A stretch of 64,000 bases of DNA from Chthonomonadaceae bacterium (GCA_035650735.1 DASRGZ010000173.1:1-64000), one strand, 5' to 3'; counted from the stretch's first letter, positions 28,342 through 54,480 are shown. The notes: generated by a model not told the origin, from the letters alone. Made by a program: numbers and translations.

Positions 28342-30768
28342 ATGTTCTCTTTCCGCATGTTGATCATGGGCCTCTTCGTTGTCCTGGGGCCGTTAGCGGC
28401 GCAGGGCGCGCCTCTCCGAGACGCAGGGAGGCTGCTTCTGGTCAAGCAGGGCCGTCCTGCCGCCGCCATCGTCCTTGCCGCTGCGCCGACCGAGAACGCC
28501 CGGATCGCAGCCGGCGAACTCCAGCATTATCTAGAGAAGATGACCGGTGCGCGCCTGCCCATCCTGGCGGATAATCAAGCTCCGTCCGGGCCGCTGGTCC
28601 TGGTCGGGCGCAGCCGCCTTACCGACGCCATTTCCCAACTCCAAATCCCCAACGGGCGTACCAAGGATCTGAAGGAAGAAGGCTTCCTCCTGCGAACGGT
28701 GGGGGAGCGGCTGGTGTTGGCAGGCAACGACACCGAGCCCTATCTGGGGACGCGGTACGCCGTGATCGCGCTGCTGCACCGCCTGGGTGTGCGGTGGTTC
28801 CTGCCTGGAGAGTTCGGAGAGGTCGTTCCAAAGCGGGGTACCGTGGCCGTCGGGCCTGTCAGCGTTATCGAGCGCCCGAGCTTCCCCTTCCGCACCTTCT
28901 GGGAGCATGGCCGGGGCACGATGAACCAGGAGCGGGAAGAGTGGCAGGTCCATAACCTGATGAACCCACGCATGGCGTCCTGGGTCGGCGTGCCCGGCGA
29001 TGGCTCGCTCTTCAACTTCTTGCCGCACGAAGAGTTCAAAGCGCACCCGGACTGGTTCGCCCTGCGCCGAGATGGCAGCCGCGACGACCACATGGTCTGC
29101 ATGACCAGCCCCGGCATGATCGCCTGGTTCATCGAGCGGCTGAAGCAGGAGGCGAAAGCCGGAAAGCGCTTCGTGGCGTTTGCGCCGGAGGACGGCGCGC
29201 CGCGCTGCTACTGCGAGCGGTGTATGAGACTCGCCTCCGCCTTCGACGGCTACGGCTCCAACGACCGCGACCCCTGGCCGGAGTCCTCTACCAGCCAGGA
29301 GTGGTTCTACTTTATCAACAAGGTGCTGGACGGGGTGAACCAGAAGTATCCGGACTTTCGTATCGCCACCAACGGCTACTCCAACCGGGAACTCGCGCCG
29401 AACCTGCCGGGATTCAATGCCCACAGGAACCTGGTGATCATGTTCGCCAACATCTGCGCCTGCACGCTCCACGCCTACGACGACCCGCACTGCTGGCAGA
29501 TGCGCCGTCAGGGCCAGATGATCCGTCAGTGGACGCGCCTATGCGACAAGACCTGGATATACAACTACAATTACACCATGCTCGTCAACAAGGGCACGCT
29601 CACACCGATGGTCCATCGGGTGCGGCGCAATCTGCCGCTGCTGAAGCAGTGGGGCGTTTACGGCTTCGACGATCAGGACGAGTGTGACTGGTCCATGAGC
29701 GGCCTGGCTACGCGGCTGGTGCGGGCGCGGCTGGAGTGGGACGTCCATGCGGATGTAGAGGCGATACTAACGGACTTCTACGCCCGCTGGTTCGGCCAGG
29801 CGGCCCGGCCGATGCGCGCCTACTACGACGCGCTGGAGCGCGCCTTTGAGGAGACCGAGGCGCACGGGCATGAGGATGTCGTCCTGCCCCACATCTACAC
29901 GCCGCGCCTGATGGCGTCCTTGAGGGCGCGGATGCATGAGGCGGAACTGGCTGCGCGCACCAACACCGAGAAACTTCACGTGCGGCTGGAGCGGCTGATC
30001 TACGACCACCTGCGAGAGTACGTGGCGCTGGAGCAGGCCAAACAAGCGTGCCGATATCGGGAAGCCGTCGCCCATACTAAGCGCATGATGGCGCTCAAAG
30101 ACGAGATGAACAAGATCACTCCGTTCATGGGCTGGCATCCCTACCCGGTCTACTATACGGACTGGGAGCAGGAGCGCATGGAGGGTCTGCTGGCGCGAAC
30201 GGAGGGGCCGCAGGGCGCGCTCGTGGCCGTCTTGCCGGCGGAGGCGCGCTTCCGGCTGGACCCGGAGGACGACGGACGGTACGCGGGCTGGCAGGCCCCG
30301 GACCTGGACGACTCCAAATGGGCGACAATTCGCACCACCACCGGCTGGGAGCAGCAGGGCTTTCAAGACCAGGAAGGCCATCCACGCCGGGGAGTCGCAT
30401 GGTACCGGCTGAATGTGGAGGTTCCGGCCTCTACGAAGGGCAAGAGGGTCCGGCTCTGCGGCCCGGCGGCGGTCAGCGAGGTCTGGGTCTGGGTCAACGG
30501 GCGCTATATCGGCCACCGGCCCTATATGATCCCCTGGACGCGCCCGCAGGCGTTCGACTTTGAGGTCACCCCGGCCCTGCGGCCCGGCGCGCGCAACCAG
30601 ATCACGATCCGCGTACTTTCCAACTTCGAGGTCTTCGGCGCCAGCGGCCTCTACGAGCGCATGTTCCTCTACGCGGCCCCTCCGGCCCCGTCGGTATCGT
30701 CCAGGATGCAGGCATTATTTGCCGTATTGGGGACGATCCCCGTGACGCGCCTTCTGGGGAAGTGGTGA
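28342..30768 (+). CDS. Exported DUF4838-type glycoside-hydrolase-like protein with a C-terminal galactose-binding-like domain
   Basis: Signal peptide; AAGELQHYLEKMTGA, LGVRWFLPG, HPDWFAL, C-x-C-x2-C; GVAWYR...VWVNGRYIG. Confidence 0.75.
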   Translation: MFSFRMLIMGLFVVLGPLAAQGAPLRDAGRLLLVKQGRPAAAIVLAAAPTENARIAAGELQHYLEKMTGARLPILADNQAPSGPLVLVGRSRLTDAISQLQIPNGRTKDLKEEGFLLRTVGERLVLAGNDTEPYLGTRYAVIALLHRLGVRWFLPGEFGEVVPKRGTVAVGPVSVIERPSFPFRTFWEHGRGTMNQEREEWQVHNLMNPRMASWVGVPGDGSLFNFLPHEEFKAHPDWFALRRDGSRDDHMVCMTSPGMIAWFIERLKQEAKAGKRFVAFAPEDGAPRCYCERCMRLASAFDGYGSNDRDPWPESSTSQEWFYFINKVLDGVNQKYPDFRIATNGYSNRELAPNLPGFNAHRNLVIMFANICACTLHAYDDPHCWQMRRQGQMIRQWTRLCDKTWIYNYNYTMLVNKGTLTPMVHRVRRNLPLLKQWGVYGFDDQDECDWSMSGLATRLVRARLEWDVHADVEAILTDFYARWFGQAARPMRAYYDALERAFEETEAHGHEDVVLPHIYTPRLMASLRARMHEAELAARTNTEKLHVRLERLIYDHLREYVALEQAKQACRYREAVAHTKRMMALKDEMNKITPFMGWHPYPVYYTDWEQERMEGLLARTEGPQGALVAVLPAEARFRLDPEDDGRYAGWQAPDLDDSKWATIRTTTGWEQQGFQDQEGHPRRGVAWYRLNVEVPASTKGKRVRLCGPAAVSEVWVWVNGRYIGHRPYMIPWTRPQAFDFEVTPALRPGARNQITIRVLSNFEVFGASGLYERMFLYAAPPAPSVSSRMQALFAVLGTIPVTRLLGKW

Positions 30769-31692
30769 CTTGCCCGCACGGACCTGTTTGTAGGCGCTGC
30801 GGTGGCGGTCATGGTAAGTCGCCGTCGTCTCGAAGCCGAACTCCTCCTGAAGCTGGGCGCAGGTGAGGGCCGGGTCTCTTGGTTCCACCACGAAGTGGGC
30901 GCTGCCGGGGTCCCACTGCCTGATCTCCACACGGTCGCCATACTTGGCCCGGATGCGATCCGGGATGCCCATGTTCCAGTCCCAGTGGGCGACCGCGTAA
31001 TCCAGGTTCATGTCGCGGGCGATCACGGGAGCCGAGTCGCTGGTTTCGGCCAGGACCTCTCCACAGGGGTCTATGATGCGCGAGCGGCCGGTGCGCGTGG
31101 AGGACATGACGTAGTAGTGGTGCTGGTAAGCGTAGACCCGCAAGGGGAACCCGCCGTCATACGCCGAGGGCCAGAGCACCAGCCGCGCGCCCTGGTCGGC
31201 GAGCGCCTGCCAGTTCTCCGGAAAGCCGATATCGAAGCAGATCTGGATGCCGATGCGGCCAAAGTCCAGGTCCAGGATTGGCAGCGAGTCGCCGGGGGTG
31301 ATGCCCTGCTCCAGCACTGTGTAGTCGGCAGAACTGGTGACGGGGCAGACCTTGTGGTAGATGCCCGCCACCTCGCCGTTGCGGTCGAGGACGACGGCGG
31401 AGTTATACACGCGGCCATCCTCAAGGGTGTGGATGGGACAGACGATGTAACATCCCGCCTGGCGCGCCTTGCGGGCACAGGCGGTGATGGTCGGCCCGGA
31501 GAGGGGTTCCGCCGTCTCCTGCAGCGGCTTCCGGACGCCCACGTCGTGAAAGGCTTCCGGGAGACAGACAAGGTCCGGTTTCTCTCGAAGGGCCATATCC
31601 ACCAGCCCCAGGATATACTCCAGGTTCTCCTCCACGGTGGGCTTGAACTGTCCACCCTGGCATACCGTAGCGATTCGCGCCTTCGTTCCCAT
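30715..31692 (-). CDS. Carbon-nitrogen hydrolase (nitrilase/amidase family)
   Basis: LPE, YHK, ICFD catalytic triad. Confidence 0.88.
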   Translation of the reverse strand: MGTKARIATVCQGGQFKPTVEENLEYILGLVDMALREKPDLVCLPEAFHDVGVRKPLQETAEPLSGPTITACARKARQAGCYIVCPIHTLEDGRVYNSAVVLDRNGEVAGIYHKVCPVTSSADYTVLEQGITPGDSLPILDLDFGRIGIQICFDIGFPENWQALADQGARLVLWPSAYDGGFPLRVYAYQHHYYVMSSTRTGRSRIIDPCGEVLAETSDSAPVIARDMNLDYAVAHWDWNMGIPDRIRAKYGDRVEIRQWDPGSAHFVVEPRDPALTCAQLQEEFGFETTATYHDRHRSAYKQVRAGKSPLPQKARHGDRPQYGK

Positions 31693-31861
31693 TCTCTCCC
31701 TCCTTCGTTTCTCCTCGCTTAATCAGCCTAGTGGCCGCTTCGTTCACACAGTTACTCATCGGGAAGGCGTAACCTTATGACACCGTTTCAATCGACGGTA
31801 GTGTCCCTCTACAGAGTTGATAAGGTCATTGGCGACGAAGTATCAACTCTCTATGGGTACA

Positions 31862-32962
31862 CTACCCAATCGACAACGGCAGGGAAACCGGTTCGCCTGT
31901 CTTGAGCGAGCGGTGCGCCGCCTCGCTCAGTTCCAGCGCCCGGTATCCGTCCCAGCCGGTAACGAGCGGCGGTTCCGCGCCGCGAATGGATTGCAGAAAG
32001 TTCTCGATCTGTCCCATGAAACCGCCAAACTCCTCGTCGAACAGCAGTGTGTTCGGCACGACGGGACGCCAGGATTTCGTCGGCCCTTCTTCGCTGTCGT
32101 AGAGCAGAAGCTCGTATTGGTCCTCGACGGCAAGCCACGCCTTGTCGGCATAGATCTCCACGCGCTCCCAGGGCTTGAGGCTCAGGGCCGTCGAGCTCGT
32201 CAGCAGCGTGCCGACGGCTCCCGAAGCGAAGCGGCAGGTGATAATCGCGTTGTCCACAGGATAGGCGTTCCGGTTACGGTGGTAACGGTTTTGTCCGATG
32301 GCGGTTACGGTCTGGACATCGCCCATGAAGTAGCGTGTCAGGTCGAAAAGATGAATGGTTCCCGCCTCGAACAGATCCACATAGTCATAGCCCAGGTTGA
32401 ACTTGCCGCAGAACATGGCCGGATCGCGTACCGGTCCTTCAGTCACGAAGCGCTTGGCGCGACGGTACGGTGGGCTATAGCGCTTGTTGGAGACGGTCAT
32501 CAGCAGCACGCCGCGCTCGTCCGCCAGGCGGCATAACTGCGCCGCATCGGCCAGCGAACGGGAGATCGGCTTTTCGACCAGAACGGGCAGTCCCTTCTGG
32601 ATACAAGCGAGGCTGTGCTCGACGTGCAGCTCATCCGGTCCGCAGACCAGCACGCCGTCCAGCGCTTCGTTTTCCAGCATCTCTGCGTGGTTTTCATACC
32701 AGCGGCAGCCGTACATCTGCTGGATTTTCTGTCCCCACTCCTCGCCTTTACGCACGACCGCGACCAGCTCGACCGGCTCCCAGATCGTTTTCAGACGCAG
32801 GAGCGCGGGAATGTGTTTAGAGAGGGCCACCCCGCCCGTGCCGATGATACCAAGCCGCAGCGGCTTGCGGGAGGCCCGCTCCTCATCATAGCCGACTCCA
32901 TAGACGTCGCCCTGGTCGAACATCTTCCTGGGAGGCGTGTGCCCATAGGTATCGTCCAGCAT
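31862..32962 (-). CDS. Gfo/Idh/MocA oxidoreductase
   Basis: GIIGTGG, VLVEKP, IHLFD. Confidence 0.88.
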   Translation of the reverse strand: MLDDTYGHTPPRKMFDQGDVYGVGYDEERASRKPLRLGIIGTGGVALSKHIPALLRLKTIWEPVELVAVVRKGEEWGQKIQQMYGCRWYENHAEMLENEALDGVLVCGPDELHVEHSLACIQKGLPVLVEKPISRSLADAAQLCRLADERGVLLMTVSNKRYSPPYRRAKRFVTEGPVRDPAMFCGKFNLGYDYVDLFEAGTIHLFDLTRYFMGDVQTVTAIGQNRYHRNRNAYPVDNAIITCRFASGAVGTLLTSSTALSLKPWERVEIYADKAWLAVEDQYELLLYDSEEGPTKSWRPVVPNTLLFDEEFGGFMGQIENFLQSIRGAEPPLVTGWDGYRALELSEAAHRSLKTGEPVSLPLSIG

Positions 32963-32984
32963 CGTGACCATCTCCCCGAAAGAG

Positions 32985-33653
32985 CTATCCAAGAATGCCC
33001 ACGATGGAGCAAGGCCCGCTGTCCATGCCCTGCACGATCCAGGGATTCATCCGCACTTCGCGCAGCCGGCTCAGGTCCTGCTCCAGATTCATGTCCTCGA
33101 TAATCAAAAACCGCCGTCCCTCCCCGCCGAGCAGTTCGTTATGACACGCCATCGTCTCCTCCAGGTAGGGGATACAGGCTACCGAGGGCACATCCATGCC
33201 GATGGCCCGGAGGGTAGGGCAGCGTTCCCGCAGCCAGCGTCCCCCCGGCACGCCGAAACCGGGGCAGCGCGTGCTGTACCGCTCCGGCTCGTTCCGCCGG
33301 ACGGGACCATAGCCAAAACGAAATAGGACAAGGTCCGCGCTATCCAGCTTAGCCGTGTGCGGTTCCAGATGTTCCGGTCCCACTACAACGGCATCCGGAA
33401 GCGACAGATCGATCACGCTTGGGCGGGTGAAGATAAACTCCTCCGGCGCGAAATCGGTCAACTGCAAGCCCGTATCAATCACGTGGCGGGGCGCGTCCAC
33501 GTGCGTTCCGGTGTGGCTGGCGACGCGCAGAATCTGCACGTTCGCGCCGTCGGCGGCGACCGTGTAGAGGGGCGTCAGTTCGGGCGCGGGAATGGCGGGA
33601 GGGCGCGGGTCCTGGACGTTGAGGGGATAGGACAGCCAGATCATCTGTGTCAT
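32985..33653 (-). CDS. Cyclase (kynurenine formamidase-like) family metal hydrolase
   Basis: HTGTHVDAP, IGMD, H..LL, IIEDM. Confidence 0.85.
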   Translation of the reverse strand: MTQMIWLSYPLNVQDPRPPAIPAPELTPLYTVAADGANVQILRVASHTGTHVDAPRHVIDTGLQLTDFAPEEFIFTRPSVIDLSLPDAVVVGPEHLEPHTAKLDSADLVLFRFGYGPVRRNEPERYSTRCPGFGVPGGRWLRERCPTLRAIGMDVPSVACIPYLEETMACHNELLGGEGRRFLIIEDMNLEQDLSRLREVRMNPWIVQGMDSGPCSIVGILG

Positions 33654-33658
33654 GGCGC

Positions 33659-34819
33659 TCACCTCGTTTCGTTCTGCGTGAAGTCTTGCAGCCAGCGCCC
33701 GTCCCAGAGGGACGGAAAGCTGTTCTTGACGTAGGGATGGGCCGCACAGACGGCGGTATCGAGCTCGATGCCCAGTCCAGGCTTCTCCGGCAGCAGGAAC
33801 TCGCCGTTTAGCACCGGGTTCCAGCCGCGCACCAGCGCATCGCGCCAGGGCACGTCGAACTCGGCGAAGTTCTCCTGAATGCGCGCGTTGGGCGTAGACC
33901 AGTCCACATGGAGGGCCGCACAAAGCGCGACCGGGCCGATGGAGACATGCGGCGAAATCTGCATGTCCTGCGCCTCGGCCAGCGCCGCGATCTTCTTGGT
34001 CATCCGCAGGCCGCCGCAGTGCGAGGGGTCCATCTGCACGACATCGGCGGCGCGCAAGGCTGTCAACTGCTGGAACTCGTGCAGCATATAGAGCCGCTCG
34101 CCCGCCGCGATGGGAAACGGCAGGGCCTCCTTGACCTCTTTGAGCAGCGGCAGGCTGTGCGGCGTGACGGGTTCTTCATACCAGGCAGGCCGATAGGGGG
34201 CCAGACGCCGCCCCATCTCAATCGCGCAGGCCACGGAGAGCCGCCCATGCGCTTCGATCATGAGGTCTACGCGCTCCCCGACCGCTTCCCGCACGGCGCT
34301 TACAATCGCCTCGACCTCCTGCATCTCGGCCTCGCTCATCTCTTTCCAGGCTGTGCCGAAGGGATCGAACTTGAGCGCCGTATAGCCGCGTTTCACGGCA
34401 GTGGAAGCGTATTCGGCGTACTGCATCGGGGTTTTTGCGCCGCCGTACCAGCCATTGGCATAGGAGCGAAGGCGCTCATGGCAGCGTCCACCGAGCAGCT
34501 TATAGACGGGCTGGCCGCATTCCTTCCCTAGGATGTCCCACAGCGCGACTTCAACGCCGCTGATGGCGGTCATGATGGTCGCGCCGCCCTGGTACTGGTC
34601 GCGGATCATGCCGCCGATGACCGCCTCAATGTCGAAGGGATCGGCGCCAAGTATGCGATCTTCCACCCACTCGTGAATCAGGGTTTCGACGGTCTTCTCC
34701 TGCCACTCCAGCGAGGCTTCCCCGATGCCGGTCAGTCCGGTATCAGTCGTCAGGCGGACAAAGAGGTAGTTGCGCAAGCCTGCATTGGTCAGAAAGGTTT
34801 CCAGCTTGGTAATCTTCAT
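33659..34819 (-). CDS. Mandelate racemase/enolase superfamily acid-sugar dehydratase (DgoD-like)
   Basis: SGVEVALWDILGK, YANGWY, KFDPFG, EAHGR, EEP, GER. Confidence 0.88.
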   Translation of the reverse strand: MKITKLETFLTNAGLRNYLFVRLTTDTGLTGIGEASLEWQEKTVETLIHEWVEDRILGADPFDIEAVIGGMIRDQYQGGATIMTAISGVEVALWDILGKECGQPVYKLLGGRCHERLRSYANGWYGGAKTPMQYAEYASTAVKRGYTALKFDPFGTAWKEMSEAEMQEVEAIVSAVREAVGERVDLMIEAHGRLSVACAIEMGRRLAPYRPAWYEEPVTPHSLPLLKEVKEALPFPIAAGERLYMLHEFQQLTALRAADVVQMDPSHCGGLRMTKKIAALAEAQDMQISPHVSIGPVALCAALHVDWSTPNARIQENFAEFDVPWRDALVRGWNPVLNGEFLLPEKPGLGIELDTAVCAAHPYVKNSFPSLWDGRWLQDFTQNETR

Positions 34820-34846
34820 CGTTCGCCTTCCACTTCTTCATTGCCC

Positions 34847-35848
34847 CTATTCCAGCAACTCCCACGCTGCCGCCGCAATGTCTTCGGCCTGCATGTGATA
34901 CCGCTCGGCCAGGTAGGGAAGGGAACCGCTCTCGCAGAAACAGTCGGGAATGCCTATTCGCTTGAGACGGATGGGCACGCTCGCGTCGGTCACTGCGTCG
35001 GCGACAGCGCTGGCAAGCCCCCCGGTGATGACGTGGTTTTCCGCCGTGACGACCTTCGGCACGCGGCCCACCAGCGACAGGACAGCCTCGCGGTCGAATG
35101 GCTTGAGCGTGCTGACGTGCAGCACGGATGCCTGAATACCCTGCATTTCCAGAAGGGCCGCTGCCTCCAATGCCCGCCCGGTCATCAGGCCGGTGCTGAT
35201 GAGGGCGACATCCGCACCCTCGCGCAGCCGTTTTGCCCTGCCAAGCTCAAACTGATAGCGCGCCGGGTCCAGCACGACCGGAACCTGCCCGCGCAGCAGC
35301 CGCATGTAGACCGGTCCGTCGTAGTCGGCAATGGCAGCGACGGCTTGCGCAATCTCGGTCGCGTCGCAGGGGTCCAGCACGACAAGGTTAGGAATAGAGC
35401 GCATGAGAGCCAGGTCTTCGATGCCCTGGTGCGTGCCGCCGTAGCCGGTTGTCAGGCCGGGCAGTCCCGCGATGATCTTGACATTGGCCTTGCCGAGCGC
35501 CGCGCCGATGGCGATGAAATCATAGGCACGGCGCGCGGCGAACACGCAGTAGGTTGTGGCGAAGGGAATAAAGCCGGTACGGGCCAGTCCTGCCGCCACG
35601 CCGATCAGGTTCTGTTCCGCCATGCCGATTTGGAAGAAGCGCTCCGGGAAACGCTCGGCAAAGACGTGTATATCGGTGTACTTGCCCAGATCTGCCGTCA
35701 GGCCGACGATACGCGGATTTCGCTCCGCCGCCGCGACGAGCGCGTGGCCGAAGGGCGCGGCTGTCACGGCGCTGGCTCTGGTCGTATCGGAGGAGAGGAG
35801 AGTTCCGGTTACGCCTTTGGGCGGACTGGTCTGCCGGCATGTCGTCAT
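34847..35848 (-). CDS. Split transketolase, C-terminal (pyrimidine-binding) subunit
   Basis: GMAEQN, GGTHQGIED, AENH. Confidence 0.9.
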   Translation of the reverse strand: MTTCRQTSPPKGVTGTLLSSDTTRASAVTAAPFGHALVAAAERNPRIVGLTADLGKYTDIHVFAERFPERFFQIGMAEQNLIGVAAGLARTGFIPFATTYCVFAARRAYDFIAIGAALGKANVKIIAGLPGLTTGYGGTHQGIEDLALMRSIPNLVVLDPCDATEIAQAVAAIADYDGPVYMRLLRGQVPVVLDPARYQFELGRAKRLREGADVALISTGLMTGRALEAAALLEMQGIQASVLHVSTLKPFDREAVLSLVGRVPKVVTAENHVITGGLASAVADAVTDASVPIRLKRIGIPDCFCESGSLPYLAERYHMQAEDIAAAAWELLE

Positions 35849-35855
35849 CGTCGTC

Positions 35856-36695
35856 TCACTCTCCCGCTTCCAGTTGCGCCCGCGCGATGGCCCACTCCCC
35901 GGCGTCCACGCGAATAAAGTGATTCTTCTCACGCTGCTCGAAGAGCGGTACACCTTTGCCCATCACGGTGTCCAGCACAATCGCGTGGGGACGGCCTTTC
36001 GCGGCCTTCGCGGTGTCTATCGCCGCCAGAATCGCCGTGATGTCGTTGCCATTGATGCGCTGAGCTTGCCAGCCGAACGCTTTCCACTTCGCCTGCACCG
36101 GCTCGATGCCCATGATCTGCTGTGGGGGGCCATCCGCCTGCTGGCTGTTGCAGTCTATGAAACAGAACAGGTTGTCCAGCCTATAGTGCGCTCCCGCCAT
36201 CGCCGCCTCCCAGGTCGCGCCTTCTTGAAGCTCGCCATCGGAGAGCAGGTTGAAGATGCGTGCCTGCCGTCCATCCAGGCGCAGGCCCAGCGCCATACCG
36301 ACCGCCTGCGACAGCCCATGACCGAGGGAACCGCCGGTGATCTCGAACCCTGGCGTGGCTTCGCTGCCCGACATCTCCAGACGCGAGCCATCCTTGCCAT
36401 AGGTATCCAGTTCGTCGAGCGGGAACACGCCCGCCTCTGCCAGCGCGGCATAGAGGCCGATGGAGTAGTGGCCGATGGAGAGGACGAAACGGTCGCGGTC
36501 GGGCCAGTCCAGGCGGTTAGGGTCATAGCGCATCTCGTGGAAATAGAGGACGGCCAGCAGGTCGGCGATGTCCAGCCCTTGCCCCACATAGCCCTGCCCG
36601 GCCACTTCCGCCATGCGCAGCACATGCCGCCGCAGGTTCTTGGCGCGGGCCTTCAGCGCCGCCACCGGCATCACGTCCAGACGTTCTTCAACCAT
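35856..36695 (-). CDS. Split transketolase, N-terminal (TPP-binding) subunit
   Basis: RDRFVLSIGH, GGSLGHGL, SDGELQEG..WEA; GQGY replaces the usual GH. Confidence 0.9.
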   Translation of the reverse strand: MVEERLDVMPVAALKARAKNLRRHVLRMAEVAGQGYVGQGLDIADLLAVLYFHEMRYDPNRLDWPDRDRFVLSIGHYSIGLYAALAEAGVFPLDELDTYGKDGSRLEMSGSEATPGFEITGGSLGHGLSQAVGMALGLRLDGRQARIFNLLSDGELQEGATWEAAMAGAHYRLDNLFCFIDCNSQQADGPPQQIMGIEPVQAKWKAFGWQAQRINGNDITAILAAIDTAKAAKGRPHAIVLDTVMGKGVPLFEQREKNHFIRVDAGEWAIARAQLEAGE

Positions 36696-36807
36696 GCTCC
36701 TCTGCAAGCCTCCTCGCCACGTACGGAAGTTTCAAGGCAGACGTTATGCCCTTGCGGGGCGCTATCCGGGATCAAATCAGGCCGCGATGGACGATAGCAC
36801 CGCCTGC

Positions 36808-41766: not shown

Positions 41767-41770
41767 CACA

Positions 41771-44788: not shown

Positions 44789-44801
44789 GGGCGTGTCTGA
44801 T

Positions 44802-46328: not shown

Positions 46329-46359
46329 TCTCCATGTAGCGGCCACTGTGAACGCTCCT

Positions 46360-47151
46360 CTATCGGCCTGGCCTGTGATGCCAGTAATCCTCGACGAACG
46401 CGGCAACCTGTTTCACGCACGCCTCGATGAGCGTCCGCCCGGTCTCTGCCGAGGCCGGAGTTGGGTCGCCAAGCAGCCCGGTCTTGCTGGGATGGTAGTT
46501 CCAGGTGGACCAGAAGACCCGCGTGGAGCCGATGAAGTTGTCGCCGGCGACGAAATCGGTATGATAGGTGACGTGATCCACGTCGGTATACCTGGCGGTA
46601 TCCACCGGGTAACCGTAATGGAGCATTACCGAGGTCTCGTCCTCGCCCCCGTGAATGCTGCCGCCCGGCGCACCCTGGCGGACGGCGTTGTATTCCTTTG
46701 CGCCGAGATAGAGAAAATTCGCCACGGCAGGGTAGACGTTATGGTCATCGGCGACCTCCCGCGCCGCGACCCGTAGCAATTCGGTGTGATGCCCGTGCCC
46801 GTTGAGGATGAGAATCTTATCGAACCCCATCTCGCAGAGGGAGCCGACGATCTCGCGCATCATGTTCATGACCGTGCGGGTGCGCATACGGATCGTGCCG
46901 GGCCAACGCTGCATCTCCACGGCGGAGTAGCCCGTCCAGATGGCCGGAAGAGTGAGGAAAGGAACCTGGCTGTGATCCTTCAGGTAGGCGCAGAGGTCGT
47001 CCATGAACCGCTGCGTGATGAAGAGGTCCGTGCCGGTGGGCAGGTGCGCCCCATGCTCCTCAATGGTGCCGATGCCCATGAGGATCAGGGCTTTCTGCTC
47101 GATGAAGGGCTTCAGTTGCTCGGAGGTGAGGTACTCAAAACGATGTTCCAT
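46360..47151 (-). CDS. Creatininase family amidohydrolase
   Basis: GTIEEHGAHLPTGTD, NGHGH, HGGEDETS. Confidence 0.9.
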   Translation of the reverse strand: MEHRFEYLTSEQLKPFIEQKALILMGIGTIEEHGAHLPTGTDLFITQRFMDDLCAYLKDHSQVPFLTLPAIWTGYSAVEMQRWPGTIRMRTRTVMNMMREIVGSLCEMGFDKILILNGHGHHTELLRVAAREVADDHNVYPAVANFLYLGAKEYNAVRQGAPGGSIHGGEDETSVMLHYGYPVDTARYTDVDHVTYHTDFVAGDNFIGSTRVFWSTWNYHPSKTGLLGDPTPASAETGRTLIEACVKQVAAFVEDYWHHRPGR

Positions 47152-47160
47152 TCAGTTGCC

Positions 47161-47889
47161 TCAGGGTGTCGGTAGGTACGTATTCAGGTCCTCCCGCCGT
47201 CTTCCGCGCAGGTGAAAGACGCCTTTCCAGTCCGGATTGGTGACTCTGGTGTGCGCGGAGATGACGCGAATGACGAGATTAATTCGCCACTGATCGCGGG
47301 AGGTGTTCGCATTGGAACCATGAATGATGTTGGGATGGTGGATGGAGACGTCACCGGGCTGAAGCTCCATATCCACTGCCCGCGACTCGTCTACCAGGCT
47401 GTTATCGATTCCCGAATTGAGGAGGTTGCGAACGTCTGTTCGGGTCTGAACTTCATGCAAACACATATGCTGCGTTCCGGGAATGACGCGCATACAACCG
47501 TTCGCGGGCGTCGAGGGCGTTAAAGCTACCCAGATCGTGCAGACCTCCATCGGATCGAGCGGCCAGTAGCTGCCGTCCTGATGCCAGAGAATCGCCATCT
47601 GTTGCGCCTGTGCCGCAGGCGGTTTAATGATATATCCGGTTGCGAACAACGCCAGGTCCGACCCCAGGATCGCCTCGGCCAGGTCGATGAGTTGCGGCTG
47701 ATTCACAAAGCGGTGATAGAACGGGTCCTCGAACCATAAGGGACGTGCATGAACCTGTTCCGGGGTTTCGTCGGGAAACCGTGTCAGCGTGTCCAGCGCG
47801 TGCTGCTTCGCTTCGGCAACGCGCGCGGCATCCACTACATTGCGAACGATCACATAGCCATCCCGGTTGTACTGGTCGCCTAAACTCAT
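47161..47889 (-). CDS. Phytanoyl-CoA dioxygenase (PhyH) family protein
   Basis: WHQD, NGCMRVIPGT, HGSNAN, R. Confidence 0.9.
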   Translation of the reverse strand: MSLGDQYNRDGYVIVRNVVDAARVAEAKQHALDTLTRFPDETPEQVHARPLWFEDPFYHRFVNQPQLIDLAEAILGSDLALFATGYIIKPPAAQAQQMAILWHQDGSYWPLDPMEVCTIWVALTPSTPANGCMRVIPGTQHMCLHEVQTRTDVRNLLNSGIDNSLVDESRAVDMELQPGDVSIHHPNIIHGSNANTSRDQWRINLVIRVISAHTRVTNPDWKGVFHLRGRRREDLNTYLPTP

Positions 47890-47934
47890 ACTGCCCTCAA
47901 TTGTCTCCGCGGCGGGAAGATGACGAAGCGCCTT

Positions 47935-49236
47935 TCAGCCCCGGCGATTGGCAATGATCTTCGCGACGCCGACCAGGCCCGGATGCTCTCCGGCGGTCGG
48001 TTGCAGAGTCAGGTGGTGCCGTTTGCCCAGGAGTTCCAGCCAGTGCGCGCTGCGCGAGAGGCCGCCCCCGGCAAAGAGACGGCGCGGCGGCTTCCCGGCG
48101 GCGGTGACGCCGGCCAGCAGCGCACCGAATTGCGCCGCGTAGTACTCCAGCAGCGCGCGGGCCAATTCCTCCCGACGGCAGCCGAGGCTCAGGTCGTGAA
48201 TGTCCAGCCGCCCGCCGCCGTGCAGAGCAAACTGCGGCAGTGCGGTGGGAACCTCTTCCGCCTTGAGCGCGGCCTCGATCATCGTGTCCACGCCCTTGCG
48301 CGGGTAGAGCAGCCGCGCCAGCCACTCCACGACGTTGCCGCACTCCGATTCCAGGCCCAGCAGGAACCACCGTCCAGGCAGCGGGCTTATCCCCGCGATC
48401 TGGTCTTCGGAGGATGGTTCCATCGGTCGGGACTTGAGCGCATAGACAACCAGCGCCGTGCCGAAGTTGCAAAAGAGATCGCCCTCTTCCTCGATGCCCG
48501 CCCCGACAGCCGCGCAGCTCTGGTCGTTGCCGCAGGAGTAGACCGGCACGGCGGGCAGGTCGAGCGCGCCGCAGACTAGCCGCGTCAGGCACGCGCCCCG
48601 CGCCGCCGCCGGAGCGACCGCCGCAAGGTTGTCTGCCGTGATGCCTGCCAGCGCCAGCGCGCGCTCGTTCCAGGCCTGCTTCGTGATGTCATAAAAGCCG
48701 CCCATGCCCTGGTTGGTCGAGTCGCCGTAGAGTTCTCCGGTCAGGCGATAGGTGACCCATTCATTCAGCAGCACGAACCAGCGCGCCTGGCCGCCTTCCC
48801 GACGAAAGCGCATGACCTTCGGAAGAAACTGCATCGGGTTGGGCCGAACGAAGCCGCACGTCCGGGCGAAGTCCGGCAGGGCACGCGCCGCCTCCTCCGC
48901 CTCCGGCACGGCCTGCGTATCCGTCCAGACGACGGCAGGCTGCACCGGCTGGCCGCGCTCATCCAGCGCGACGTAGGTTTGCGCCTGGGAAGAAAGCCCG
49001 ACCGCGCGGACGGTAAGGCCCTGTTCGCGGGCGGTGCGCGCGGCCCCGCGCAGGGCTTTCCACGCGCACGAAACATACCGCTCCGGGTTGCAGGTGACGC
49101 GGCCCTCCGCGTAGTCCAGGTAGTCCAGTTCGTAGGGTGTGACGGTCACGCGCCCCCGAACGCCGGTCTCATCCACCGGTGCGGCCTTGAACGCGGTCGT
49201 CCCCAGGTCCAGCGCGAGGATGCAGCTAGAGGTCAT
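47935..49236 (-). CDS. FGGY family carbohydrate kinase
   Basis: LDLGTT, WTD, GNDQ, NFGT, GGGLSRS. Confidence 0.85.
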   Translation of the reverse strand: MTSSCILALDLGTTAFKAAPVDETGVRGRVTVTPYELDYLDYAEGRVTCNPERYVSCAWKALRGAARTAREQGLTVRAVGLSSQAQTYVALDERGQPVQPAVVWTDTQAVPEAEEAARALPDFARTCGFVRPNPMQFLPKVMRFRREGGQARWFVLLNEWVTYRLTGELYGDSTNQGMGGFYDITKQAWNERALALAGITADNLAAVAPAAARGACLTRLVCGALDLPAVPVYSCGNDQSCAAVGAGIEEEGDLFCNFGTALVVYALKSRPMEPSSEDQIAGISPLPGRWFLLGLESECGNVVEWLARLLYPRKGVDTMIEAALKAEEVPTALPQFALHGGGRLDIHDLSLGCRREELARALLEYYAAQFGALLAGVTAAGKPPRRLFAGGGLSRSAHWLELLGKRHHLTLQPTAGEHPGLVGVAKIIANRRG

Positions 49237-49277
49237 TCAGCGCGTCCCTTTCTCGCCAGATTGGGCAGAGCGCGCGA

Positions 49278-49769
49278 TCACAGCACTCCGTCCCTGCCGA
49301 TGCGCCTGTCCTCGAAAATGTTGTCGCCCGGAATCGAAGGGAGCGAAACTTCCAGCACGAGGGCAGGCCCGCCAACCGCGGCGAAGGTGTGCACGACGCC
49401 GGGAGCCATCTGGTAGGTGTCGCCCTCCTGCATCAGAAACTCCCTGTCATCCGCCTCCATCGCGACCGTTCCCTTGACAATGAAGAACGTTTCGTCCTTC
49501 ATTCGGTGCTGGTGGCGCGGGCAGCGCTGATTCTCAAAGAGGAGGAGAAACTTGCCGCAGTAGTTTCGGTCGCGGTCGTTGACGATCCAGTACTCGATCT
49601 CGCCGATGCGGCGAAAATTGCGCAGGCCGAAGTCAATGGTGAGCGGGTCCACGGGAGGCATGGTCAGGCCCCAGTCTTTCAGGATTCGCGCGGCCTCGGC
49701 TAGCGCCTGCGTCCGTTCCTCGCCTTTAATCTCGAAATCCAGCGTCCATTGCGCGTCCGCGTTTCTCAT
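49278..49769 (-). CDS. D-lyxose ketol-isomerase family cupin
   Basis: YCGKFL, QRCPRHQH..KDETF, HTF, EVS; 4-bp overlap with the aminotransferase gene. Confidence 0.85.
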   Translation of the reverse strand: MRNADAQWTLDFEIKGEERTQALAEAARILKDWGLTMPPVDPLTIDFGLRNFRRIGEIEYWIVNDRDRNYCGKFLLLFENQRCPRHQHRMKDETFFIVKGTVAMEADDREFLMQEGDTYQMAPGVVHTFAAVGGPALVLEVSLPSIPGDNIFEDRRIGRDGVL

Positions 49770-51139
49770 GCGTATCCCAATTCCTTTTCCGTCTCGAAGA
49801 TCGCTTCGTCTATGATGTCCATGCCTTTGGCGGCGATCTCTTCGTCCATGATGATAGGCGGAGAGAGGCGCAGGATGTGGCCCGCCGGAATCCAGGCCAG
49901 CCCCTTCTGGAACGCCTTCTGGTAGACCCGCTTCCCGGCCTCGTCGAACGGCTCCTTGGTGGCGCGGTCTTTTACCAACTCGATTCCCAGCAGGCAGCCC
50001 TTCCCGCGCACGTCGCCGATGATCGGGTGCGCCGCCTTCATCTGCTCCATGCGCCGCAGAAAGAACGTCTCCAGTCGCCGCGCGTTCTCCAGCAGCCCTT
50101 CCGCTTCGATAACCTCGATGGAGGCCAGAGCCGCCGCGCAAGCCATGGGATTGCCGCCGTAGCTGGTTGAGGCGGAGATCGCCTCGAACGCAGCCTTGAC
50201 GTTCTCGCGCGCCACCATCGCCGTGACCGGAAAACCGTTGCCGAAGCCCTTGCCGAGCGTGCTGATGTCCGCCACCGTGTCCCAGTGCTCCATAGCAAGC
50301 CAAGTACCCGTGCGGCCCATGCAGGTCAGCACCTCGTCGGCGATGAGCAGCATCTCGTGCCGGTCGCAGAAGGCGCGCAGCTTCGGGAAGAAGTCATCGG
50401 GGGGAAGGATCGAACCGGCCCAGCCCTGTATCGGCTCGACCACGAACGCCGCAAGCTGCCCGGTGGTCACGTTCGCGACGAACTCCTCATAAAAGGCGAG
50501 GTAGGCGTCGGTGTCAATCGTCCCGTCGGCCTTGCGGAAGAGGGCGCGGTAGGGATGGGGGCGGGGAACCAGGTAGAACCCTTCGGCGCGGGCCGGGCCG
50601 TTCACCCGGCTCATCTTCGCCAGGCTGACCGCGTGGCCGGTCTTGCCGTGGAAGTCCATGTAACAACTGAGAAATTCGTGTTTGCCGGTGTAGGCGCGGG
50701 CGGCGCGCAGGGCGGCCTCGACGGCGGTTGTGCCGGAGTCGTAGAGTTGCACCCCGTTGACGCCCGGTGGCAGGACTCCCACCAGCCTTTCCAGCAGCTC
50801 TGCCTTCACCGGTGTGGTGAAGTCGTGGCAGTTCATCAGCGTGCGGGCTGCCCGCGCGATCGCCTCGGAGACTTTGGGATGGCAGTGGCCGAGCGTCGTC
50901 ACGTAGATGCCCGAAGAGAAATCCAGATAGGTGTTGCCGTCCACGTCCTTGAGGACGACGCCGAAGCCCTCCTGGAAACAGACGGGGTGCAGCTTCACCT
51001 GCGAGGAAAGCCCCTGGATGATATGGGAGGCGCGGGCGTGTATCGCCTGCGACTTCGGGCCGGGGCTTTCCGTCACCATATGCGGCACGCAGGCGAAATC
51101 AATCCCCTGCCGCCACCAGGCAGCGCCGTAGGTTGTCAT
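49766..51139 (-). CDS. Class III PLP aminotransferase
   Basis: DVDGNTYLDF, SGT.AVE, FHG, EPIQG, DEV, LGKG, STSYGGNP. Confidence 0.92.
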   Translation of the reverse strand: MTTYGAAWWRQGIDFACVPHMVTESPGPKSQAIHARASHIIQGLSSQVKLHPVCFQEGFGVVLKDVDGNTYLDFSSGIYVTTLGHCHPKVSEAIARAARTLMNCHDFTTPVKAELLERLVGVLPPGVNGVQLYDSGTTAVEAALRAARAYTGKHEFLSCYMDFHGKTGHAVSLAKMSRVNGPARAEGFYLVPRPHPYRALFRKADGTIDTDAYLAFYEEFVANVTTGQLAAFVVEPIQGWAGSILPPDDFFPKLRAFCDRHEMLLIADEVLTCMGRTGTWLAMEHWDTVADISTLGKGFGNGFPVTAMVARENVKAAFEAISASTSYGGNPMACAAALASIEVIEAEGLLENARRLETFFLRRMEQMKAAHPIIGDVRGKGCLLGIELVKDRATKEPFDEAGKRVYQKAFQKGLAWIPAGHILRLSPPIIMDEEIAAKGMDIIDEAIFETEKELGYA

Positions 51140-51265
51140 AAATAGCTCCTCACGTTGCTTGGATAGGTCTGTGATCCAGGCAAAGGCGTTCCTCTAAACG
51201 CATCCTCGCCGTAACTTCGCAGATTTCCAATCGCGGAGAACTGCGGAGTTGCTCTGCGTGGGTGT

Positions 51266-51496
51266 TCAGCGATCCGGAAAAGAGATGCCGGGAACGCCCG
51301 CCGGTTTTGTCGCGCCTGCCGGAGGGGTAGGGGCCGCGTGCGCCCTTCCCCCTCCGAATGCCTTGCGCAGCATCCGCTCCGTTTTCTCGGCATTGGCCCC
51401 GCCAGGGGACGTGCCCTGCCAGAACACGTACCCCAGCACCAGCACAACGACGGTGATGATCAGCGCCACAACCGGCGTCGGAATGTTCACACGCAT
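51266..51496 (-). CDS. Small single-TM protein, partner of DUF1559 gene B
   Basis: RBS GGAGG; IPTPVVALIITVVVLVLGYVFW; Pro/Gly-rich tail. Confidence 0.7.
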   Translation of the reverse strand: MRVNIPTPVVALIITVVVLVLGYVFWQGTSPGGANAEKTERMLRKAFGGGRAHAAPTPPAGATKPAGVPGISFPDR

Positions 51497-51542
51497 TACG
51501 ATCTTACCTCCACACGCTCTCTTGCGCCCTCTCCAACGACCA

Positions 51543-52313
51543 CTAGGGATCGGTATCCCTGAAGTTGGACGTGACCGGCCATCCCAGCCTGGGCCAGATC
51601 GGATCGTAGCACGGCTTTGGCAGCCAGGAGAAGCGCCAGAGCAGCTTATCTACCGGATGGGCCTTAGCATGGCCGTCGAAGAAGACGACGTTCATCTTGG
51701 CATCCGTCTGCCAGCAGGCGTACCAATCGTCCCCACCCACGTAGTCGTTGGGAATGTGCCGGTTGTCATGCCAGGGGACCAGCTCGCTGAACAACTTGAA
51801 CTGGGAGGGATACGCGGTGGTGCTGTCGGTCCAGGGCGAGGGGAGACTGAGTCCCCAGGTGCTGGCCCAGCCGCTTGCCGAGGCAAAGAACTGGTAATAG
51901 TAGGATGAGTATCGCTTGTCCAGCACTATCGTCGGGTCGGCCCCGATATCGCTCGGGCACTTCCAGATCCCATCGTTCTTTATGTAGGGCTGAAGCTGCG
52001 TCTTGAGGCTATACTTCCTTTCGTAGTCGAGCGTCGTGGCATCCGGCGGAGCGCCCACCCCACGATAGTAATCCGTAAAAAGATCAATCGTCTGGAAGGT
52101 AGCCCAGTCTACCGTCGGGAAGGCGCCATCCCAGTCCTGCGTGTACATGAGCGTGGCCAGGCCGAGCTGCTTCATGTTGGAAAGGCAGCTCGTGGCACGG
52201 GCCTGCTCCCGCGCTCTCGCGAAGACGGGGAAGAGGATGGCGGCGAGTATGGCAATAATGGCGATAACGACGAGCAGTTCAATGAGTGTAAAACCACTCT
52301 GCGTTCGTTTCAC
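51543..52313 (-). CDS. Prepilin-type N-methylation/DUF1559 protein B
   Basis: [55 protein letters not shown]. Confidence 0.92.
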
Positions 52314-52399
52314 AGCTTTCTCCTTAACTTGCGGCGCCCGGAAAACGGCACATCCGACACGGGAGCGCCCCGACTCCGGCGCATCCCGTGCCGGGTCGG

Positions 52400-52639
52400 T
52401 TACTTCGGTTGCGGTGCGGAGGGTCCGCCTGCCGCTGCTCCCGGGGCGCCGGGAGAGCCGGGGTCGAGCAGGGGACCCGCCGCTTTGGACCCGGGCTTGG
52501 CGATGGTGGCGTTGATCGCCGCCTCCATATCCTTAGCCTGCCGTCCGGGGCCGGTGCCGAAGTAGAGGTAAGCCACCATGATCAAAACCACGACGATGAC
52601 GATGGCTGCTGCGACCCACGGAGGAATCTCTGTTTTCAT
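52400..52639 (-). CDS. Small single-TM protein, partner of DUF1559 gene A
   Basis: [32 protein letters not shown]; Pro/Gly-rich tail. Confidence 0.7.
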
Positions 52640-52659
52640 TGTTTACTCCTGCAACCGGC

Positions 52660-53484
52660 CTAGTCCACATCCCAGAAGTTACCGAAGCTATCCGGGCAGG
52701 GTTCGGCCGCGCCCCCGTGCGGCGGAATGCAGCGGGGCCAATGGACGTCGAAGACATGGGCGGACCCGCTGAGCCATCCGAAGTAGGGGAACAGCGATGC
52801 CTGAGAGGTGTAGGTCTTCACGTGGCCGTCCATGAACGTCAGGTTCATCTTGCAATCGGGGAGCCAGGCGTAGGCATCCCAGAAGGTGCCCGCGGCGGCC
52901 GGGTCCTTGCGGAAGTCATGGAAGGGGATGATCTCGGAGAGGATGAACGCCTGCGCCACCTTTTCGGTTGCGGCCAGTTTCACGGCGGTCTTGGCCCACG
53001 ACGGTTGGATCTGGTCCACGTAGCCGGGGGAGAAGGGTATGGATATCGGGTAGAACTTCCAGTGGTACGACGTGAAGCGCTTGCCGACTACGATCCGCGT
53101 ATCTACCCCCGGGTCGCTCGGACAGCCGAAGAGGCCGGCATTCTTGATGTAGGGCATGAACTGAGCCATGTAGGAGGAGGTCCGTACATACTGGGCGGTG
53201 GCGTCATCGGCAATGGGCGCGTGCCCGTTGTAGACCTCGCTGTAGATGTCGTCCGGGATCTGGCGCGCGGCCTCCAGATACATGCAGGGCCAGGTTTCGT
53301 CGTAGTCCTGCACATACATCAACGCGGCCAGGCCGATCTGCTTCATGTTGGAGAGGCAACTCGTTTTGCGCGCCTGCTCTCGTGCCCTGGCAAAGACGGG
53401 GAAGAGGATGGCGGCGAGTATGGCGATAATGGCGATAACGACGAGCAGTTCGATAAGTGTAAAGCCACTCTGTGTTCGTTTCAC
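52660..53484 (-). CDS. Prepilin-type N-methylation/DUF1559 protein A
   Basis: Same N-terminus as [22 protein letters not shown]. Confidence 0.92.
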
Positions 53485-53539
53485 AGCTTTCTCCTTTTAC
53501 AGCACCCAGAAAAGGGCGCATCAGCGACAGAACAAACCA

Positions 53540-54400
53540 TCATTCTATTTCCTCGTTCTGTCTTTCCACCTCCCTTTGCAGCGCTTCCGTGCCGGCAAGG
53601 ACGACCTCCACGCCGGTATCACGGATAGCCTGCACATCCTCCGGCGACGCACCGATGTCGGTCACTATCGTATCCAACAGACTCAGCGGGCCGACACGGG
53701 CGTAGGAGCATCGACCGAGCTTGGAGGAGTCGCACAGGGCGATCACCCTCGTCGCCCGGTCAATGAACTTGCGTTGCCGGACCGCCTCAGGCGCATCCCG
53801 CTCCGTAATGCCATAGGACACATCCAGCGCGGCGGCCCCGACGAAGGCGATGTCCCAGAACAGCATATCGAGCGCCTCTATCGCGAGGCTGCAATCGGTG
53901 GCGAGCAGTTCCGGCCGAACTCTCCCACCGAGCAGTTCCACCGTGCAGGCCGTCTCCGTTGTCAAGCGGGCTGCTATCTGAACCGAGTTGGTGACGACGT
54001 GTATCGAGGCGTTCGGAGGAATCCGCATGGCGAACGCCTGGACGGTCGTTCCGTCTGCCAGAAACACGGAGCCGGTCTCCGGAAGGAACTCCAGGGCGGC
54101 CTCTGCGATCCACTCCTTTTGCTCCGCGTGCTCATGGCGCACCTGAACATAGGGCAGCCGCGTGAAGGCCGGATCGTTGGCGACGGCGCCGCCGTGCGAA
54201 CGGATTAGCTTGCCTTCTTTGGCGAGCATGGCAAGGTCGCGGCGGATCGTATTGGGACCAACATCCAGCGTCTGAGCCAGTTGAGCCACGTTGGCCGCGC
54301 CGTGACGCTGTACCCAGGCCAATACCCGCCGACGTCTCTCGACGGCGAGGAGCGCCCCGCGCTTCGTATCGCCCTGTGTGTTTGTTTCCCGGATCGCCAT
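53540..54400 (-). CDS. DeoR/GlpR family transcriptional regulator
   Basis: TIRRDL HTH, RSHGGA, VVTNS, LLGG, DSSK, TD. Confidence 0.92.
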   Translation of the reverse strand: MAIRETNTQGDTKRGALLAVERRRRVLAWVQRHGAANVAQLAQTLDVGPNTIRRDLAMLAKEGKLIRSHGGAVANDPAFTRLPYVQVRHEHAEQKEWIAEAALEFLPETGSVFLADGTTVQAFAMRIPPNASIHVVTNSVQIAARLTTETACTVELLGGRVRPELLATDCSLAIEALDMLFWDIAFVGAAALDVSYGITERDAPEAVRQRKFIDRATRVIALCDSSKLGRCSYARVGPLSLLDTIVTDIGASPEDVQAIRDTGVEVVLAGTEALQREVERQNEEIE

Positions 54401-54451
54401 TGCGCCTCCCCGCCAGATGGCATATGCCATTGCCTGCATCAGAATTACCGG

Positions 54452-54480
54452 AATCTAACATATATCATCACGAATGTCAA
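54452..54480 (-). promoter_or_regulatory. Sigma70 promoter of the DeoR-led locus
   Basis: Minus strand TTGACA-17 bp-TAGATT in an AT-rich region. Confidence 0.75.

Follow-up and report, generated by a model that had tools for sequence, protein, structure and literature searches.

The polysaccharide utilization loci of the Bacteroidota bring together in one substrate-specific locus a regulator, glycan-handling proteins that are exported or at the surface, an importer and enzymes of the cytoplasm, and are built around SusC and SusD. Here we describe a gene cluster of similar general composition found in a stretch of 64,000 nucleotides (contig C173:1-64000, DASRGZ010000173.1, referred to as the window) of a Chthonomonadaceae bacterium (GCA_035650735.1), a soil bacterium of the phylum Armatimonadota whose genome (G000) comprises 6.52 Mb in 224 contigs and is 97.6% complete. 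The cluster consists of 22 consecutive minus-strand genes, running from 54439 to 30715, and differs from the Bacteroidota loci in that Pfam scans find neither SusC nor SusD among its 22 products, while TonB-dependent receptors are represented in the whole genome by a single fragment (TonB_dep_Rec). It carries instead two genes for pilin-like proteins of the DUF1559 family, each followed by a small membrane protein gene, and one gene for a DUF6785+DUF6784 protein. Close homologs of the window proteins are titled Armatimonadota, and the nearest related loci to Chthonomonadales or Chthonomonadaceae; outside the window, genes were called with a crude open reading frame (ORF) caller.

Few protein families are as expanded in Planctomycetota and Armatimonadota as DUF1559. 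In Planctopirus, 68 paralogs make up the largest paralog family, with two essential members and a function described as unknown in a 2023 study (PMC10632474). A work on Tuwongella reports that 25 of 91 N_methyl+SBP_bac_10 proteins were detected, mostly in membrane fractions, and that signal-peptide genes often lie on either side of the genes for them (PMC8567305), and DUF1559 is mentioned only in passing, with no function given, in passages of another (PMC5352709). No role is assigned to DUF1559 in the literature searched, which covered titles, abstracts and passages, and DUF6785 is named nowhere in it. The name given at NCBI to some members, "DUF1559 family PulG-like putative transporter", indicates that a transport role was already suspected by annotators.

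Two further systems come close. In the bindosome (Bas system) of the archaeon Sulfolobus, the proteins that bind sugars have signal peptides of class III, and glucose uptake depends on a pilus-type assembly system (PMC3047682). Both cases show pilin-type leaders on nutrient-linked proteins together with a pilus-type ATPase and platform, since DUF1559 genes lie near sugar regulators and assembly genes are present in the genome; the bindosome subunits, however, are true ABC (ATP-binding cassette) binding proteins which feed ABC transporters, whereas the DUF1559 head appears to be a swollen pilin-like one, the cluster has no ABC gene and the host is a diderm with secretins. In planctomycetes, pili-like fibres of the crateriform structures bind dextran, followed by its internalization (Boedeker et al. 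2017, PMC5394234), so that here also pili-like fibres handle a polysaccharide; the phylum is a different one, and the portion of that paper at hand draws no link to DUF1559.

The features of the cluster, given in the direction of transcription, are the following.

54452..54480, minus strand: sigma-70-like promoter match, TTGACA-17-TAGATT with an upstream TG, agreeing at 10/12 positions, 13 nt upstream of the DeoR start
53540..54439, minus strand: DeoR-family regulator, with HTH_DeoR (59.5 bits) and DeoRC sensor (129.5 bits) domains
52660..53484, minus strand: DUF1559a, pilin-like protein of 274 amino acids (aa) whose signal peptide is of class III (Pfam and leader motif)
52400..52639, minus strand: small partner a, single-pass, 79 aa, an N-terminal transmembrane helix followed by a Pro/Ala/Gly-rich tail (ORF and transmembrane prediction)
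51543..52313, minus strand: DUF1559b, pilin-like protein of 256 aa, conserved locus-specific lineage (Pfam, orthology)
51266..51496, minus strand: small partner b, single-pass, 76 aa, one transmembrane helix (orthologs in the related genome G099 and the related record L042)
49766..51139, minus strand: class-III aminotransferase (327 bits)
49278..49769, minus strand: cupin, sugar-isomerase-like, its start overlapping the aminotransferase stop as ATGA (Pfam)
47935..49236, minus strand: FGGY-family sugar kinase (XylB-like, 126 bits, under the cut-off)
47161..47889, minus strand: PhyH-family Fe/2-oxoglutarate dioxygenase, outside the conserved core (Pfam)
46360..47151, minus strand: creatininase-family amidohydrolase (172 bits)
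44802..46328, minus strand: unk534, exported, glycoside hydrolase (GH)-like, of no named family (signal peptide from Met27 of ORF 44802-46406)
43811..44788, minus strand: UxuA/xylose-isomerase-like TIM-barrel enzyme, outside the core (Pfam)
41771..43786, minus strand: DUF6785+DUF6784 polytopic membrane protein, predicted importer (DUF6785 376.6 bits, DUF6784 81.2 bits)
40299..41462, minus strand: GH130-family enzyme, beta-mannoside hydrolase/phosphorylase type, cytoplasmic (29.6 bits, cut-off 26)
38806..40302, minus strand: unk498, GH-like, without signal peptide (signal-peptide scan)
36808..38778, minus strand: unk656, exported (signal peptide), possibly of GH20/GH67N/GH89/DUF4838-like architecture (a lead)
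34847..36707, minus strand: split transketolase, N half 35856-36707 and C half 34847-35848 (Pfam/NCBIfam)
30715..34819, minus strand: distal enzymes, namely an MR/MLE sugar-acid dehydratase, a cyclase-family hydrolase, a GFO/IDH/MocA oxidoreductase and a CN hydrolase (profile matches)

The order of regulator, two DUF1559/small membrane protein pairs, enzymes, exported hydrolase-like proteins and a single polytopic protein, here obtained from Pfam and signal-peptide scans, is that given by the initial annotation of this DNA, as is the absence of ABC, major facilitator (MFS), phosphotransferase (PTS), TRAP and TonB-dependent families, which match 0/22 products in the Pfam scans. About 23 genes with short gaps or 4-bp overlaps had been reported; the run, the gaps and the overlaps stand, the count is 22, and one gap is longer. 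Gaps between the genes range from -8 to 169 nt, with a single outlier of 308 nt between the DUF6785 and GH130 genes, and the overlaps are three of 4 bp (aminotransferase/cupin, GH130/unk498 and MR_MLE/cyclase) and one of 8 bp. The DeoR protein has both the HTH_DeoR and the DeoRC domain of its family (Pfam) and is nearest to the GlpR and AgaR profiles, yet falls under their cut-offs. Concerning the near-consensus promoter described upstream of it, the 10/12 match exists, but promoter-like sites are no commoner in the region than in shuffled sequence (4 vs 3.0 +/- 1.6), hence the motif is to be read as a consensus match and not as functional evidence. The Rfam scan of the window detected no riboswitch in the locus, its only hit being RNase P.

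Comparison with relatives shows that the locus is a real, conserved catabolic unit, as had been proposed from its layout. Orthologs of unk656 (58-59% identity) occur in only 2 of the 150 other phylum genomes sampled, and in both the gene order is the same. In G099 (contig C18) the DeoR regulator is conserved at 76% identity, DUF1559 at 61% (to DUF1559b), the aminotransferase at 84%, the cupin at 59%, the FGGY kinase at 53%, the creatininase-like hydrolase at 85%, unk534 at 62%, DUF6785 at 64%, GH130 at 63%, unk498 at 70% and unk656 at 58%, with an orthologous small partner in its place, and L042, a Chthonomonadales record, keeps the same order up to the contig end. Across these two, unk534 is 62-68% identical, and the DUF6785 orthologs of the cluster copy are 64-66% identical in G099, L040, L041 and L042. 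The syntenic loci of G099 and L042 lack PhyH, the UxuA-like gene, transketolase and all four distal enzymes, which leaves a conserved core of 12 genes, i.e. DeoR, DUF1559, small partner, aminotransferase, cupin, FGGY kinase, creatininase-like hydrolase, unk534, DUF6785, GH130, unk498 and unk656. The UxuA-like enzyme has a 77% identical homolog adjoining DUF6785 in L040.

The pilin-like gene belongs to this core. The DUF1559 heading the syntenic loci is the ortholog of DUF1559b (277 bits in G099 and 287 bits in L042, vs ~100 bits for the best paralog outside the locus), and DUF1559a is a later, lineage-specific duplicate of it. By these scores, the DUF1559b lineage is co-inherited with the locus. 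The small partner b orthologs lie after DUF1559 in G099 (L026:8120-8374) and L042 (1344-1592). A longer ORF (51136-51447) was considered as the second small gene and discarded, being in the wrong frame.

Beyond this cluster, DUF1559 genes accompany nutrient sensors of several kinds. Ten of the 11 LacI regulators of the genome have a DUF1559 gene no more than 633 bp away, compared with 172/5063 genes (3.4%) of the background that have one within 1 kb (binomial 2e-14 for LacI); the same 633 bp hold for 1/3 DeoR and 2/6 AraC regulators. In the comparison genomes G022, G099 and G105, which represent the same family, the same order and another family of the phylum, a same-strand DUF1559 gene, starting 1.1-1.5 kb from the LacI helix-turn-helix (HTH), comes after at least 23 of 32 LacI genes, a lower bound since nine weak DUF1559 matches are left out. 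Pilin-like genes thus occupy, as the initial annotation had suggested, the position where binding-protein genes usually are, and this presence beside nearly every LacI sugar regulator makes a nutrient-capture device a likely function. The only thiamine pyrophosphate (TPP) riboswitch found in the genome (C21:3469-3572, 68.1 bits) is directly upstream of a DUF1559 gene, followed by an FAD monooxygenase gene, and one of the two TPP riboswitches found in G022 is likewise upstream of DUF1559. Two ABC operons also include DUF1559 and contain no enzyme genes: one on C64 (L012:5075-8877) with an HTH+PBP_like regulator, DUF1559, SBP_bac_11 and a permease, and one on C42 (L119:5436-9104) with an NMT1-like binding protein, a permease and DUF1559. 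As a whole, ABC permease loci show no enrichment of DUF1559, which is within 5 kb of 5/27 of them vs a 12.2% background.

New in the present analysis are this adjacency to regulators, the locus-specific orthology described above, and the small-partner statistics, the machinery inventory and the negative pairing and galactokinase results given below.

DUF1559a and b match PF07596 (SBP_bac_10) at 38.3 and 34.7 bits (cut-off 23.3) and N_methyl at 38.9 and 38.8 bits, and TIGR02532 is matched at 34.6 bits (cut-off 16.3). Both leaders are class III signal peptides, with a short basic leader, G-1, F+1, E+5 and a hydrophobic helix. At least 66 copies are present in the genome by Pfam, and 78 by a hidden Markov model (HMM) built from those, hits under 60 bits being excluded. 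In an alignment of 54 paralogs identity is 74% over the first 55 aligned residues and 27% over the remainder: the paralogs have a constant stem bearing a variable head. An AlphaFold2 model of DUF1559a from a 50-sequence alignment (predicted local distance difference test, pLDDT, 93.2) shows a 50-residue N-terminal helix and a head of ~215 residues. In an exhaustive VIA search, 18 of the 20 top rows are pilins, pseudopilins or ComP, all weak (Z 2.5-5.0); Foldseek yields no match at E 0.001 or better, with only the N-terminal helix aligned, and sequence and profile searches of the PDB match only the N-terminal pilin helix.

With the type II secretion system (T2SS) pseudopilins (PulG/GspG) and the DNA-uptake type IV pilin ComP, DUF1559 shares the class III leader (G-1, F+1, E+5) and, in the model, the long N-terminal helix followed by a beta-sheet head; pilins, ComP, EpsG and PulG are its top, though weak, structural rows. 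It differs from them in a head about twice as large (~215 residues), in the distribution of 78 paralogs across catabolic loci rather than in one operon, and in the small transmembrane and TPR (tetratricopeptide repeat) partners, which are not known in those systems.

It should also be mentioned that both DUF1559 genes of the cluster start with GTG within a near-identical hairpin with a 5-bp stem (CTGTG-N7-CGCAG / CACAG, at 52299-52315 and 53470-53486); the two hairpins were scored as terminator-like sites on opposite strands. They may represent a shared translational element or merely conserved leader coding sequence.

Small ORFs with an N-terminal transmembrane helix (with a lipobox in five cases) follow 29/78 DUF1559 genes vs 22/600 control genes (odds ratio 15.5, p 8e-17), and those of the cluster have orthologs in G099 and L042. 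Complex prediction for DUF1559a with partner a gives a score of 0.45, the best control reaching 0.01; at least 60% of contacts are shared between runs, with a partner pLDDT of at least 66. The 0.45 mark is reached by 116/157 solved complexes and 2/215 mismatched pairs, and passing scores of 0.60 or lower came from only 18 of the 157 solved complexes, plus both mismatches, so that the prediction hints weakly that DUF1559a may bind small partner a. TPR proteins anchored by a transmembrane helix lie within three genes after 11 of the 21 DUF1559 genes with annotated downstream genes, and an FG-GAP/ASPIC lipoprotein often accompanies them; the 21 are a biased sample, selected for closeness to DUF6785 or regulators, and the 22-gene cluster has no TPR gene of that kind.

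Regarding assembly, the genome contains 6 secretins, 17 T2SSE matches and one prepilin peptidase. The peptidase (A24) operon (C56:80666-91137, L117) also encodes a PilB-like ATPase, a second T2SSE ATPase, T2SSF, two DUF1559-like pilins and a 703-aa N_methyl protein, and is likely the core machine for the 78 paralogs.

The DUF6785+DUF6784 protein, taken in the initial annotation as the inner-membrane permease, was modelled with AlphaFold2 from 11 paralogs (pLDDT 79.6, predicted template modelling score, pTM, 0.84). The model retrieves only barley Yellow Stripe 1 (HvYS1, 7wst/7wsr), both with Foldseek (7wst_A, E 7.1e-8, TM scores 0.62/0.69; next match E 0.055) and with VIA-align (Z 25.1, root-mean-square deviation 3.9 A, 548/601 residues; next Z 4.7), and in this predicted model the OPT fold of the solved member extends over the whole chain. 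Like Yellow Stripe 1, the protein would be polytopic with a secondary-transporter architecture; unlike it, identity being only 10-13%, it belongs to a family expanded here to about 20 copies per genome. By sequence, the Pfam scan gives no match to the OPT profile (PF03169) at E up to 0.01, and neither phmmer nor the 11-paralog profile matches anything in the PDB. Taken together, DUF6785/DUF6784 is predicted to be a secondary transporter of OPT/Yellow-Stripe fold, and an importer, that is not filed as a PF03169 member. The permease role is thereby supported, and the statement that the locus has no canonical transporter is weakened, since the modelled fold is that of a known class of secondary transporter.

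The genome holds ~21 DUF6785 copies (23 matches minus two 51-residue fragments, on C211 and C212), three of them in the window, and the family is found in 127/151 sampled phylum genomes and also in Candidatus Poribacteria. Sugar-related neighbours of these copies include GH38, an AXE1-like esterase, FG-GAP/ASPIC, xylose-isomerase-like barrels, MR/MLE, Zn-dehydrogenases and a galactokinase. The latter case is in the window itself, where a second DUF6785/DUF6784 gene (19354-21393, minus strand) overlaps a galactokinase gene (21390-22568, minus strand) by 4 bp.

The third DUF6785 locus of the window (57924-64000, continuing to C173:67601, minus strand) comprises LacI, DUF1559, an 80-aa transmembrane protein, two TPR proteins, a Zn-dehydrogenase, DUF6785 and a second Zn-dehydrogenase. 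PhyH dioxygenases, two of which are in the window (47161-47889 and 6429-7175), recur in the DUF6785/DUF1559 loci of the genome, often with xylose-isomerase-like barrels (L012, L016, L018, L023, L033, L036 and L037).

Of the proteins described as exported and hydrolase-like, unk656 and unk534 do have signal peptides, whereas unk498 and GH130 have none. In the ESM Atlas unk656 falls among GH20/GH67N/GH89/DUF4838-like proteins (feature score 0.97, TM score ~0.7), which is to be taken as a lead. unk498 and unk534 resemble each other weakly (24% over 163 residues, E 3e-4), and the clusters that contain them have no family assigned, GH84, GHL6 and GH67M being leads; PDB sequence and profile searches return nothing for unk656 and unk534 and only chance rows for unk498. 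The GH130 enzyme scores 155 bits with the NCBIfam profile of BT3780-like beta-1,2-mannosidases, whose cut-off is 550, next to the Pfam GH130 match already given. Considering also the aminotransferase, cupin, kinase and amidohydrolase, we infer that the substrate may be a glycan bearing a beta-mannoside or an amino sugar. Convergent with the cluster end lies a gene for an 810-aa DUF4838 + GH2_N-like protein (28336-30768, plus strand), whose N-terminal part is weakly like unk656 (24% over ~155 residues, E 1e-6).

Our preferred reading, to which we assign a probability of about 0.5, is that this is a DeoR-headed catabolic cluster in which DUF6785 imports across the inner membrane while the DUF1559 pair and its small partners serve substrate acquisition on the envelope side. 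In such a scheme the two exported GH-like proteins, unk656 and unk534, would act first, trimming a glycan outside the cell that may carry beta-mannoside or amino sugar. DUF1559 subunits, processed by the sole prepilin peptidase and assembled by one of the pilus/T2SS-type machines of the genome, would bind the glycan product and convey it via a secretin or over the periplasm, and DUF6785 would import it. Cytoplasmic GH130 and unk498 could then cleave the imported product, and the aminotransferase, cupin isomerase, FGGY kinase and amidohydrolase would convert the monomer to a sugar phosphate, which DeoR would sense.

Several observations weigh against this proposal. The 308-nt gap preceding GH130 may divide the cluster into two transcripts. 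The structural matches listed for the DUF1559 head include no binding-protein fold, and the pilin likeness itself is weak (Z at most 5.0). With 27 ABC permease loci the genome is not short of canonical importers, so uptake could proceed through an unlinked ABC system. As for DUF6785, where the substrates of OPT family (TC 2.A.67) members are known, they are peptides or metal chelates rather than sugars, and other copies in the genome adjoin FtsW, acetyl-CoA carboxylase, Lnt and FKBP, which are not sugar-related. The galactokinase overlap was dropped as family-level evidence for sugars, since GalK lies within 1.5 kb in just 1/29 related loci (G087, a partial one); the flanks of that DUF6785 lineage are heterogeneous, with ~6/32 sugar-related. 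The sugar role of DUF6785 does not generalise to the family, and glycoside import is inferred for the cluster copy only, on account of its conserved place between unk534 and GH130.

Nor do DUF1559 and DUF6785 form a dedicated pair, the other linkage put forward initially. Within this genome 10/21 DUF6785 copies have a DUF1559 gene within 10 kb vs an 18.5% background (p 0.002). At 79 related DUF6785 loci of other species, for which the HMM used might miss divergent DUF1559 members, only seven do so, with 0/44 in Poribacteria and 7/35 among the others. Moreover, five genomes without DUF6785 have strong DUF1559 matches, found in a phylum-wide search at E 1e-12, a threshold too strict for anything but its positives to be used. 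On these grounds the pair was rejected.

How the pilin-like proteins act admits other explanations. The one that survives best, possible in our view though improbable, is that DUF1559 proteins are locus-specific pseudopilins of a T2SS-like machine, adapting its piston to export the enzymes of each locus (unk656 and unk534 here, FG-GAP/ASPIC proteins elsewhere). The model of DUF1559a resembles PulG and EpsG (Z 3.8) as much as it does pilins, the genome has its six secretins and many GspE-type ATPases, two signal-peptide proteins are encoded in the cluster itself, and a lipoprotein or secreted FG-GAP/ASPIC protein comes after many LacI-DUF1559 modules. What speaks for capture instead is the DUF1559 gene under the TPP riboswitch, with no exported enzyme beside it, and the presence of the family within the enzyme-free ABC importer operons of C64 and C42; furthermore, 78 paralogs with 27% head identity far exceed the needs of any known T2SS.

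It is less probable still, and we consider it doubtful, that DUF1559 proteins are non-polymerising, helix-anchored periplasmic binding proteins which feed the local importer (DUF6785, ABC or other), as a bacterial counterpart of the bindosome. The Sulfolobus precedent is one in which class III-leader sugar-binding proteins require pilus-type assembly for glucose uptake (PMC3047682), and the Tuwongella proteins fractionate with membranes (PMC8567305). The Pfam name SBP_bac_10 and the NCBI "putative transporter" designation agree with such a role, as do the association of DUF1559 with differing importers and the small single-pass and membrane-anchored TPR partners, which fit a membrane complex. 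Structural and PDB searches, on the other hand, list no solute-binding fold among the matches of the DUF1559 head; passage through the outer membrane, in a genome with one TonB-receptor fragment, is left unexplained; and ABC loci are not enriched near DUF1559 (5/27 vs 12.2%). Least probable is a role of the DUF1559 modules outside transport, as adhesins induced by sugar or as pilins that remodel the envelope, import being left to DUF6785 alone: type IV pili commonly mediate adhesion, the regulator wiring suits any substrate-induced surface function and DUF6785 is widespread without DUF1559, but thiamine riboswitch control and a place in small-solute ABC operons are then unexplained.

Three other features of the window are worth recording, namely an RNase P RNA of class A (5742-6182, plus strand, 271 bits), an aminoglycoside 3-N-acetyltransferase family gene (Antibiotic_NAT, 4862-5731, plus strand, 235 bits) and two NHL-repeat ORFs which overlap in different frames (18266-18685 and 18645-18965, plus strand) and are possibly one frameshifted gene.

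Returning to substrate acquisition by the DUF1559 proteins, the reading can be extended, tentatively, to the phylum: in Armatimonadota, which would be nearly devoid of TonB-dependent receptors, the proteins of the large and diversifying DUF1559 family would be interchangeable, substrate-specific subunits of a pilus-type machine, each under its own sensor (LacI, DeoR, AraC or thiamine riboswitch), fetching nutrients via secretins to OPT-fold, ABC or other importers. If true, this would constitute a third general solution for nutrient capture at the outer membrane beside porins and SusCD/TonB systems, and would give a first function to a family that ranks among the largest uncharacterised ones in bacteria of the Planctomycetota-Verrucomicrobiota-Chlamydiota (PVC) type. 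Should the capture reading hold, it would explain glycan and vitamin uptake by diderms without TonB receptors and widen the uses of type IV filament machines. Independently of the mechanism, unk656, unk498 and unk534 are candidates for new glycoside hydrolase families, and the genome offers a testable setting, with DUF1559 in place of binding-protein genes and a predicted OPT-fold protein in place of a sugar permease.

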